The translations under genes and the position numbers were made by a program. Under the pieces are notes generated by a model, which was given only the letters and a program-made list of their open reading frames with translations, did not search any database and was not told where the DNA came from. A DNA stretch of 64,000 bases from Gammaproteobacteria bacterium (GTDB lineage Bacteria; Pseudomonadota; Gammaproteobacteria; JAJPIJ01). Positions 2,674 through 4,350 of this stretch are shown here, piece after piece. Within the stretch, counting starts at the first letter, position 1; every line of letters starts with the position of its first letter. The stretch covers positions 398,548 through 462,547 of the forward strand of contig JAWLAN010000006.1 in NCBI GenBank assembly GCA_041395385.1, read 5' to 3'.

Positions 2674-4350
2674 GTGCCCAGGATGTTGGATACTGAGTTT
2701 TGCCGGCAGATTCTCAAACTGCCGGAACCATGGGTGGTCGAGGACGTGCGCGTGGACAAGCCATCCAACCGCATCGACGTCCGGATCGGCTTGCCCCGAC
2801 ACAAGCGCTCCCTCTTCAGCCGCCCAGCGACCTGTCCGCGCTGCCATCGCGCCCTGCCCGAGACGGGCGCTGGTCACCGTGTCGTCAGGCACCTGAACAT
2901 CGGTGAGATGCGCACCTACCTCACCGTGCCGGCCACGCCCGCGGAGGGCGGCGCGAACGACTGCGGATGTCGACGCGCGTGGAGCAATCCCGGATCGCGC
3001 TTCACCCAGGAGATGGAACGCCAGGTCGTCGAGGGCCTGCATCTGCTGGGTTCGATCGACGCCGTCGCCAAGCTGTTCCTGGTCAACGCCGCCGACGTCC
3101 GCGAGATCAACGGGCAGCACCGCATCATCGATTTCGACAAGCCCGCACCCGCACCCACCCACGCCGTCGCCTACGCCCAGGCGCATTTCAATGACGGCGG
3201 GCTGGAGGTCGCCTACATCGACGAGGAGGACTACGGCACCGCGCCCGCGGCGCCGCCACCCGCGCCTCCGAAGGAAAATCAGGAGGCCGTGCCGCCGGAG
3301 TCCGATCCAGTCTGGCAGCGTCTCATCGATCATTCCGCGCACGCGAGCCTGCAGTCGTTGGGGCTGAAGATGCTGCTCGAGCAGATCCGGCTCAGCGTCA
3401 CCGGCAATGCCTCCGAGACCTCGCGCCTGGCGGCCGCCCGCATCCTGCGGCAGTACTTCGTCAAGCACTGGCGCCGCAGCCAGACGGAACTCGCGTCGCT
3501 GCTGAGCGAGACGCGCGCGCAGCCGGGTACGCAGCCGGCCCAGGCGCCGGCAAGACCGCTCATCGAGCCGCCGCCGGAGACCGACCCGGGCTGGCAGTAC
3601 CTCATCGAGGGACGCATACCCGTCCACGCCGAGGCCATCGGGCTGAAGATGCTGATCGAGCGCCTGCGCCTGACGCTGGGCTCGCGTCCCTCCGCCGAGA
3701 GCCGCATCGCCGGCGCCCGCATCCTGCGCGAATACTTCGTCAAGCACCGCACCCGCCATCAGGCCGAGCTGGCACAAGTCGTCGCCGCCGGCAAGGCTCA
3801 CACGCAGCGCACGGCGGCCCCGGCGCACCCGCAGACGACCGCGGTCGTCGAAGTGCCGCCCGAGACCGCGCGCTGCTGGCAGCTGCTGATCGACGGTCAG
3901 CTGGAGATCCAGAGCTCGGCCGTGGGTCTGACCATGCTGCTCGAGCGCATCCGGCTGACGATCGGTCGCGTTCCCTCCCCGGCCGCGCGCATCGCGGCGG
4001 CGCGGGTGCTGCGCCAGTATTTCGAGAAGTACCGCAGCCGCCACGAGGCGGAGCTCAAGCTGCTGGTCGCCGAGGATGCGCTCTACCATCCGGACAGCAG
4101 CGGCCAGGTGGTGGAGTTCGTCGAAGTGCCGCCGGAGAACCACCCGAGCTGGGACAAGCTGATACGCGGCGAGCTGCAGATCCGCACCGAGGCGCTGGGC
4201 CTGAAAATGCTGCTGGAACGGGTGCGCCTGTCGCTGGGTTCCGAACCCACGGAGGCGCTGCGTCTGGCCGCGGCGCGCGTTCTGCGGCAGTACTTCATCA
4301 AGCATCGCAGCCGCCACCGCGCCGAGCTCGAGCAGCTCAAGGCAGCCTAG
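2674..4350 (+). CDS. ISL3-transposase N-terminal (zf-ISL3 + HTH) domain protein fused to four tandem ~80-aa helical repeats; no DDE catalytic domain
   Basis: N-terminus LKLPEPWVVEDVRVD...CPRCHRALPETGAGHRVVRHLNIGEMRTYLTV...DCGCRRAW followed by an HTH-like segment (FTQEMERQVVEGLHLLGSIDAVAKLFLVNAADVREI) mirrors ISL3 transposase DNA-binding architecture. Then four repeats with core W.xLI.G.L.I...A.GLKMLLE.IRL.LG..PS...R.AAAR.LRQYF.KHR.RH.AEL. First gene of the Che-like operon. Confidence 0.7.
   Translation: MPRMLDTEFCRQILKLPEPWVVEDVRVDKPSNRIDVRIGLPRHKRSLFSRPATCPRCHRALPETGAGHRVVRHLNIGEMRTYLTVPATPAEGGANDCGCRRAWSNPGSRFTQEMERQVVEGLHLLGSIDAVAKLFLVNAADVREINGQHRIIDFDKPAPAPTHAVAYAQAHFNDGGLEVAYIDEEDYGTAPAAPPPAPPKENQEAVPPESDPVWQRLIDHSAHASLQSLGLKMLLEQIRLSVTGNASETSRLAAARILRQYFVKHWRRSQTELASLLSETRAQPGTQPAQAPARPLIEPPPETDPGWQYLIEGRIPVHAEAIGLKMLIERLRLTLGSRPSAESRIAGARILREYFVKHRTRHQAELAQVVAAGKAHTQRTAAPAHPQTTAVVEVPPETARCWQLLIDGQLEIQSSAVGLTMLLERIRLTIGRVPSPAARIAAARVLRQYFEKYRSRHEAELKLLVAEDALYHPDSSGQVVEFVEVPPENHPSWDKLIRGELQIRTEALGLKMLLERVRLSLGSEPTEALRLAAARVLRQYFIKHRSRHRAELEQLKAA

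Follow-up and report, generated by a model that had tools for sequence, protein, structure and literature searches.

What role is played by a gene that begins like a transposase and stands at the head of a chemotaxis-like operon? The question is raised by an open reading frame (ORF) on the forward strand, at 2674..4350 of a 64,000-nucleotide (nt) stretch of a gammaproteobacterial contig (the window, on which all positions are numbered). This gene, referred to here as gene X, carries the NCBI label "transposase family protein", and a sequence-only reading of the DNA had described it as an exapted DNA-binding module of an ISL3 transposase, fused to a repeat array. The homology of its N-terminal part (the head), the loss of both the catalytic DDE domain and the inverted repeats, and purifying selection show that X descends from an ISL3 transposase, is no longer catalytic and has been domesticated; most likely it acts as a regulator or an adaptor in the chemotaxis-like operon that it heads.

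While the existence of the ORF was borne out, its start was not. The GTG at 2674 lies 9 nt 5’ of an ATG at 2683, which is the likelier start because AGGAG is found at 2670-2674, 8 nt before it, and because the database orthologues, with a length of 555 amino acids (aa), begin with MLDTEF. Gene X thus encodes a 555-aa protein at 2683-4350 on the forward strand, with its stop codon at 4348-4350, and its G+C content of about 67% is like that of the surroundings. An antisense ORF of 596 aa (2641-4431, reverse strand), which covers all of gene X and has no Pfam match, is a shadow ORF of the kind that is common opposite GC-rich genes. The parts of X are listed below, with scores on hidden Markov models (HMMs) and AlphaFold (AF2) confidence as the predicted local distance difference test (pLDDT).

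2683..4350, forward strand: gene X, with an ISL3-derived head, a disordered linker and four DUF6976-partner domains (ORF, AGGAG, dN/dS)
2683..3129, forward strand: N-terminal domain, aa 1-149 (homology to the ISL3 transposase N-terminus; AF2)
3130..3279, forward strand: linker, aa 150-199 (pLDDT <50 at aa 153-197; alignment variable and gapped)
3280..3507, forward strand: repeat 1, aa 200-275 (98 bits on the repeat HMM, 72 bits on the single-copy HMM)
3559..3786, forward strand: repeat 2, aa 293-368 (100 and 62 bits on the same two models)
3844..4071, forward strand: repeat 3, aa 388-463 (103 and 58 bits)
4117..4344, forward strand: repeat 4, aa 479-554, the C-terminus of the protein (116 and 78 bits)

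The claim that the first 150 or so aa reproduce the N-terminal architecture of ISL3 transposases was confirmed by a Pfam match to Zn_ribbon_ISL3 (28.8 bits, against a gathering cutoff of 25.5) and by BLASTP, in which aa 1-142 of X aligned with residues 1-136 of a Salinivibrio ISL3 transposase at 31% identity (E 3e-16). This transposase has the domains Zn_ribbon_ISL3, HTH_Tnp_ISL3 and DDE_Tnp_ISL3, and the alignment with X ends just before the last of these (157-395). The NCBIfam model transpos_ISL3 matches aa 50-145 of the 558-aa ORF (model positions 9-107, E 1e-5), and a tblastn search of 72,556 plasmids with aa 1-149 of X led to annotated ISL3 transposases, which covered 87-93% of the query at 29-34% identity (E down to 1e-10). 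Two bona fide ISL3 transposases score 63-76 bits over positions 1-131 of a profile that was made from the N-termini of the X family and includes distant members without a Pfam match of their own; a word-filtered search of a set of 5.8 billion proteins with the N-terminal-alignment profile returned only 7 single-repeat relatives and no transposases. Zn_ribbon_ISL3 is matched by 20 of 31 full-length relatives of X and HTH_Tnp_ISL3 by 17 of them (scores up to 29 bits), and on X of the window itself HTH_Tnp_ISL3 falls below the Pfam reporting threshold.

The head is laid out as a beta-hairpin, a Cys4 zinc ribbon (C51, C54, C94 and C96) and a three-helix helix-turn-helix (HTH, aa ~105-146), the last of which is well conserved in the alignment of the X family. 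AF2 predicts two beta-hairpins (18-36 and 65-83) and helices at 109-146, with a pLDDT mostly of 82-94. The zinc-finger motif noted earlier is present in X of the window, and its cysteines (CPxC and CxC) are kept in X and its closer relatives, but it is not a conserved requirement of the family. The linker that follows (aa 150-199), which is rich in acidic residues, Pro and Ala and is predicted to be disordered, sits where the DDE domain begins in ISL3 transposases.

Beyond the head, no other trace of the mobile element was found. DDE_Tnp_ISL3 has no Pfam match in the X protein, on a model that gives 186-194 bits on control ISL3 transposases, and no DDE remnant was found in any alternative-frame ORF at X. 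No inverted repeats flank X, where only scattered short GC-rich pairs were found; the same tool finds the 28-nt terminal pair of a genuine ISL3 element (L044), and nothing similar to the sequence of that pair occurs within the window. There is one copy of X in the 64 kb, its downstream context is the same in 38 loci, and 5’ of it on the opposite strand lie lipA, lipB and a DUF493/ybeD-like gene. The view that X is not a copy of an insertion sequence therefore stands, as does the replacement of the DDE domain by helical repeats, given that the ISL3 match stops at the start of DDE and four repeats follow. Exaptation of the DNA-binding module is likewise supported by head homology, by DDE loss and by dN/dS, which against three orthologues of 90-95% identity is 0.15-0.18 overall, 0.13-0.29 in the head and 0.02-0.03 in repeat 4.

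Were X a functionless pseudogene or the decayed remains of an ISL3 insertion sequence, the NCBI name and the match of the head to ISL3 models would be accounted for. The intact reading frame, the dN/dS values, full-length orthologues down to about 30% identity with conserved synteny in the 38 loci, and the absence of inverted repeats and of a DDE remnant refute this explanation, whose probability we consider negligible. Transposase domestication is a known kind of event; neither Pfam nor NCBIfam contains the design of X, its family or its pairing with DUF6976, no description of them was found in the searchable literature, and searches for HTH_Tnp_ISL3, for ISL3 domestication and for FIST together with chemosensory systems returned nothing relevant.

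The number of tandem repeats, four, was upheld, although they are not near-identical, with pairwise identities of 47-62%, and the unit given earlier as 80 aa is rather a core of ~75 aa with a linker of ~18 aa rich in Pro, Ala and Gln, at a period of about 93 aa. The four copies score 89-116 bits each on a repeat profile built without the clade of the window, and since they score 58-78 bits on an HMM made from single-copy proteins only, all four keep the single-copy signature. The unit, of ~72-75 aa, has the signature P-x-E-x-x-P-x-W-Q-x-L-I ... G-L-x-M-L-L-E-R-x-R ... L-R-Q-Y-F-x-K-H ... E-L-x-Q-L and holds nearly invariant K, R and W residues along with conserved S/T positions. No DNA-level tandem repeat was found in gene X by TRF, which rules out a recent tandem duplication and implies that the duplication is old. 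Each repeat position has its own orthologues, and repeat 4, with an orthologous identity of 66% against 44-50% for repeats 1-3, is the best-scoring and most conserved copy.

In the AF2 model of full-length X (31-sequence alignment), a confident head, a disordered linker and helical repeats were obtained; the domains are confident and the linkers have a pLDDT <50 (mean pLDDT 79, predicted template modelling score (pTM) 0.33). Each repeat is modelled as a short helix followed by three longer ones, and a single unit (62 homologous units) as four helices with a pLDDT of 93 and a pTM of 0.80. Nothing specifically similar to the repeat unit was found in the PDB, and a PDB sequence search with X gave no match. 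An origin of the repeat within the transposase itself was rejected, as real transposases reach only about 0 bits with the repeat HMM. Recurrent sub-threshold Pfam matches of the repeats to DUF4783, DUF4226, NDUF_B6 and HEAT_IPO9_c were treated as chance helical resemblance and are not independent of each other, since the repeats are mutually homologous.

The repeat unit is not confined to X, which corrects the initial description of a novel array. The unit profile found 428 proteins at E <= 1e-3 among 1.84 billion representative proteins, with 1-6 copies each, and the commonest form of the domain is a stand-alone protein of ~74 aa. Among 196 X-family sequences, 155 bear the ISL3-like head; the remainder, which include the ~74-aa stand-alone proteins, are without it. 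The head-bearing proteins (n=155) are distributed by copy number as follows.

1 copy: 36 proteins
2 copies: 22 proteins
3 copies: 37 proteins
4 copies: 35 proteins
5 copies: 23 proteins
6 copies: 2 proteins

The partner of this domain is encoded by the next gene, which starts 13 nt past the stop codon of X.

4364..5401, forward strand: DUF6976 gene, 345 aa (PF22396, E 5e-140; weak FIST_C)

A repeat-domain gene lies immediately 5’ of DUF6976, on the same strand, in each of the 38 loci, from genomes and metagenomes, that belong to the multi-repeat subfamily. The same order, with no Che genes nearby, was found for single-copy forms of 232-245 aa in Methyloversatilis and in a Comamonadaceae genome, for a 3-copy form, and for a stand-alone protein of 74 aa on a contig with genes for PorV and Por_Secre_tail proteins (type IX secretion). 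Starting instead from DUF6976, a repeat-domain ORF ends 0-76 nt upstream in 65 of the 72 metagenome loci with enough upstream sequence, the commonest form being a stand-alone protein of 72-80 aa (about 45 loci). Because the repeat domain lies 5’ of DUF6976 in every context examined, as well as in these 65 metagenome loci, the conserved unit is the pair of helical domain and DUF6976, whose adjacency is nearly universal across phyla and copy numbers; the ISL3-derived head is a proteobacterial addition to the pair, and the increase to 4-5 copies is a further step. Adjacency suggests that the previously unmodelled repeat domain and DUF6976 most likely function as a complex, for which the basic repeats (isoelectric point 8.6-10.1) and the acidic DUF6976 (5.3) would offer charge complementarity. 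In one sequence, P0235, partner domains are fused in frame to DUF6976; as this is a fragment and a single case, it is only weak Rosetta-stone evidence, and the fusion may be either genuine or an error of gene calling. Another sequence, P0274, combines a GrpE-like N-terminal region with two DUF6976-partner domains, and here, too, the fusion could be real or an artefact of gene calling.

The DUF6976 family is large (at least 4,324 clusters at 90% identity) and unusually well conserved, with a mean column identity of 63% and an identity of 47% between the DUF6976 of the window and that of the PorV-type contig (L042). Its invariant motifs include FSCNCVLNYLY and GPMTFGEIAYQLLNQT, with invariant His and Cys motifs. 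FIST_C reaches 17.9 bits on the DUF6976 of the window (cutoff 28.5, E 0.0036) and is matched weakly by 9 of 27 members (best E 2.6e-4); no FIST N-domain, no catalytic family and no PDB relative were matched by sequence, and no paper in the literature searched mentions DUF6976.

A small upstream protein that is tightly coupled to a larger downstream one, and a partner domain that occurs with or without a DNA-binding head as in antitoxin modules, could also suggest a toxin-antitoxin-like or inhibitor-effector pair, in which the helical domain neutralises DUF6976 and the head autoregulates as in type II antitoxins. However, there are no PADLOC matches, which also led us to reject a defence system; DUF6976 is far more conserved than typical toxins and lies among chromosomal housekeeping-type genes in the inspected loci, with no mobile-element genes noted beside it, and amplification of an antitoxin domain to 4-6 tandem copies is not typical. 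Such a pair is therefore considered very improbable.

Downstream of DUF6976, the operon of the window continues with genes for a chemosensory pathway, all on the forward strand and with gaps of 30-100 nt.

5476..6339, forward strand: response regulator with a ~170-aa N-terminal extension, start codon uncertain, in a PilG-like position (Response_reg at aa 171-280 of 287)
6439..6927, forward strand: CheW-like coupling protein (Pfam CheW, E 4e-16)
6991..8385, forward strand: methyl-accepting chemotaxis protein (MCP; Pfam HAMP and MCPsignal)
8416..11229, forward strand: hybrid CheA, ChpA-like, with two Hpt domains, HATPase_c, a CheW domain and a C-terminal receiver (Pfam)
11315..12649, forward strand: receiver-Ser/Thr protein kinase, the last gene of the cluster (Response_reg and Pkinase)

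No terminator-like site was found on the forward strand within the cluster. The position of X at the head of a Che-like operon is thus corroborated, with DUF6976, receiver, CheW, MCP, CheA-receiver and kinase following on the same strand, and it recurs in about 30 independent loci, in which the Che cluster follows X with 4-5 copies. Synteny with Che genes accordingly holds for the 4-5-copy gammaproteobacterial subfamily but fails as a general rule, the invariant partner being DUF6976. Since the 1-copy, 3-copy and stand-alone forms adjoin DUF6976 without Che genes, the functional logic is that of a DUF6976 partner domain joined to a DNA-binding head. The L003/L024 lineage has a 5-copy X and DUF6976 without Che genes, and an intact locus is present in the cultured Methylohalomonas lacus HMT 1 (L021).

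Within the cluster, the MCP has two N-terminal hydrophobic segments with a short loop between them and HAMP, and no periplasmic sensor domain is evident. No CheR or CheB gene was found between 4364 and 12649, nor in the homologous clusters L001, L002 and L006. The receiver-Ser/Thr kinase, which is kept at the end of the cluster in many other loci, is the probable output, a Hanks-type kinase being unusual for a Che-type pathway. The long response regulator is conserved in about 30 loci; its N-terminal extension (~150-170 aa) is conserved as well, has no Pfam match and was also seen at L001:12914-13834 and L002:12755-13543, and its position and layout recall PatA/PilG-type regulators while matching no known model. 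Inspection of the gene calls showed an extra single-domain receiver in the related clusters L001, L002, L004 and L006; the cluster of the window is without this small receiver, which most related clusters have in a PilH-like position (6339-6439, compared to L001:13862-14233, L002:13623-13988 and L006:13800-14165), and its CheA is shorter (937 aa vs 1,230-1,603 aa) with fewer Hpt domains than those of related clusters. A cNMP_binding (Crp/Fnr-like) gene lies just 5’ of X in L002 (9138-9761) and L003 (8898-9527), and ~3 kb (two genes) 5’ of X in L004 (6299-6922); it is absent in the window.

The almost exclusive co-occurrence of the 4-5-copy forms with the Che cluster (about 30 loci, with no Che genes at the inspected 1-3-copy forms) could indicate that X is a scaffold of the chemosensory array or a factor that localises it. 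DUF6976, and perhaps response regulators or the kinase, would dock on the repeats and so be recruited to the MCP/CheA lattice; the head would anchor the complex on the nucleoid or mediate protein contacts, and X would not regulate genes in a sequence-specific way. The beads-on-a-string architecture predicted by AF2 suits a multivalent scaffold, an MCP with no evident periplasmic sensor domain would need a cytoplasmic sensor to be delivered, and no family-wide operator motif was found. The L003/L024 lineage, with its five copies and no Che genes, speaks against a scaffold, as does the well-conserved HTH region, which argues for retained nucleic-acid binding. We consider this role rather unlikely, though it is the strongest of the alternatives.

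The last gene of the cluster encodes a kinase for which no target is obvious, and CheR and CheB are missing from the cluster, which could also suggest that the repeat is a substrate. DUF6976 would then be an enzyme that modifies one conserved residue per unit or, in the Che-linked subfamily, the kinase would phosphorylate the units, and X would be a multi-site integrator that gives the pathway its transcriptional output. The enzyme-like conservation of DUF6976, with invariant His/Cys motifs such as FSCNCVLNY, is in line with this idea, as are the nearly invariant K, R and W and the conserved S/T of the repeat and a copy number of 1-6, as in multi-site substrates. However, DUF6976 has no match to a catalytic family, most loci with the pair are without the kinase, and the idea is wholly inferential; taking this into consideration, it is judged unlikely, somewhat more so than a scaffold.

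The reading that we prefer is that X combines a domesticated transposase DNA-binding domain with a multivalent docking array for DUF6976 and so couples a DUF6976 sensor to transcription; for this full chain we see about an even chance. Four beads-on-a-string four-helix domains of ~75 aa and a flexible linker stand in place of DDE, each repeat copy would most likely bind one DUF6976 (1:1 per repeat), and DUF6976 is probably a cytoplasmic ligand or redox sensor. X would then serve as a multivalent adaptor and carry up to four DUF6976 proteins to a DNA target, where their binding to the array would alter the DNA binding, oligomerisation or occupancy of the head. The state of DUF6976 would in this way be coupled to transcription, most simply that of the operon of X itself, which in the gammaproteobacterial lineage also encodes a PilG/PilI/PilJ/ChpA-like pathway with a receiver-Ser/Thr kinase output. 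In an alternative form of coupling, X may link the putative DUF6976 sensor to the chemosensory complex.

The candidate regulatory DNA for autoregulation is the 616-nt region upstream of X, in which two conserved blocks were found.

2251..2287, forward strand: upstream block 1, GTAAACAAGACCTTTCACTTCATGTTATCGTAGTAAC, a candidate promoter/operator about 400-430 nt 5’ of the start (almost identical in L008 and L011)
2370..2402, forward strand: upstream block 2, CCCAACGAGACCCCGACGAAACAATAACTTAGA, an AT-rich core in a GC-rich leader (conserved in L008 and L011, partly in L010)

The AT-rich core of block 2 is ACAATAACTTA. Both blocks are conserved, though the X proteins of L008 and L011 are only 55% identical to X of the window, and they may represent a promoter, an operator or a 5’ leader element. 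Upstream matches resembling AATAACTTA are convincing only in GC-rich relatives.

Several observations weigh against a coupling of DUF6976 to transcription through X. The upstream blocks are conserved only among closer relatives of X, and no k-mer upstream of X was enriched beyond shuffled controls, so that a family-wide operator motif was not found. In many members of the X family, such as P0017 and P0032-P0046, the zinc-ribbon cysteines are cleanly deleted (alignment columns ~55-130), so that the domesticated family can do without a zinc ribbon. In its commonest form, the partner domain is without any DNA-binding head, which implies that the core function of the pair is not transcriptional and that the head is an add-on. 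The similarity of DUF6976 to FIST is below the Pfam threshold, its high conservation fits an enzyme as well as a sensor, and the strict link between 4-5 copies and the Che cluster is unexplained by simple autoregulation. Recognition of DNA by X, and its binding to DUF6976, are moreover inferred from homology and adjacency.

A more far-reaching possibility is a new kind of chemosensory pathway for which X provides both a hub anchored on DNA and the transcriptional output, and in which four (elsewhere five) units load DUF6976 and are phosphorylated by the terminal kinase. This is a speculative proposal that we think improbable; if it were true, a Che-type array would control gene expression via a domesticated transposase DNA-binding domain, with copy number setting cooperativity, and it would be built on a widespread two-gene module, a ~74-aa helical protein and DUF6976, present in thousands of genomes. 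X in any case represents a clean bacterial case of transposase domestication, in which the head is under purifying selection and the catalytic domain was exchanged for a putative partner-binding array, and its current database label is misleading and could inflate counts of insertion sequences in genomes that carry it. The pairing also offers a first approach to the function of DUF6976, a family that is very conserved and has no literature. The Che-like cluster is distinct in having a PilG/PilI/PilJ/ChpA-like core, no CheR/CheB and a Ser/Thr kinase output, and its input or output may run through the pair of X and DUF6976.

Among other features of the window, two long ORFs overlap on opposite strands, at 13281-14687 (forward) and 12672-14465 (reverse). 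One of them matches MATCAP strongly (formerly DUF1704; E 8e-104), and the other has a beta-carbonic anhydrase domain in its C-terminal part, at aa 417-574 and the 12.7-13.2 kb end. The reverse-strand ORF is probably over-extended in its long N-terminal part. A tRNA gene at 25166-25238 on the forward strand is the only Rfam match in the window at the gathering threshold.

By comparison with known systems, X is closest in its head to the ISL3 transposases of the IS204/IS1001/IS1096/IS1165 group, including the Salinivibrio and Burkholderia plasmid copies (L044 and L045), whose N-terminal ~140 aa are homologous to X. X and these transposases have in common a leading beta-hairpin, a CPxC...C-x-C/H zinc ribbon and the helix-turn-helix of HTH_Tnp_ISL3, whereas X has neither DDE_Tnp_ISL3 nor terminal inverted repeats, is present as a single copy at a fixed chromosomal position and has a C-terminal half made of four copies of an unrelated helical domain. 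Eukaryotes have transposase-derived DNA-binding proteins such as CENP-B (from pogo), FHY3/FAR1 (from Mutator) and DAYSLEEPER (from hAT). In these, as in X, a DNA-binding domain was kept, catalysis was lost and the protein was recruited as a host factor; X differs in being bacterial, in the removal rather than the inactivation of DDE and in the fusion of its head to a tandem array that would bind a partner.

The Pil-Chp (Tfp-class) operons encode PilG, PilH, PilI, PilJ and ChpA. The related loci L001, L002, L004 and L006 resemble them in the order response regulator, response regulator, CheW, MCP and multi-Hpt CheA-receiver, and the window has the same order minus the small response regulator. 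Unlike Pil-Chp operons, the X cluster is without CheR/CheB, its first response regulator has an N-terminal extension, it ends in a receiver-Ser/Thr kinase and it has X and DUF6976 at its head. Type II antitoxins are modular proteins that consist of a DNA-binding domain and a domain that neutralises a partner, and X recalls them in that its putative partner-binding domain is found either by itself or joined to a DNA-binding head, and the gene for the partner follows directly; in contrast to such systems, there are no toxin-like features and no defence-system matches, the partner is very strongly conserved and the binding domain is tandemly amplified.

The nearest functional precedent is found in the NosP/NosK modules, in which NosP, a stand-alone FIST-domain sensor, binds and controls a signalling protein that is encoded beside it (PMC12570481). 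DUF6976, which is possibly related to FIST, likewise stands alone beside a dedicated partner within a signalling operon, and the proposed logic, in which an auxiliary sensor controls its neighbour, would be the same. The two systems differ in that DUF6976 reaches FIST_C below threshold only, in that nothing ties it to heme or NO, and in that the partner of DUF6976 is a small helical domain or a DNA-binding protein rather than a histidine kinase.

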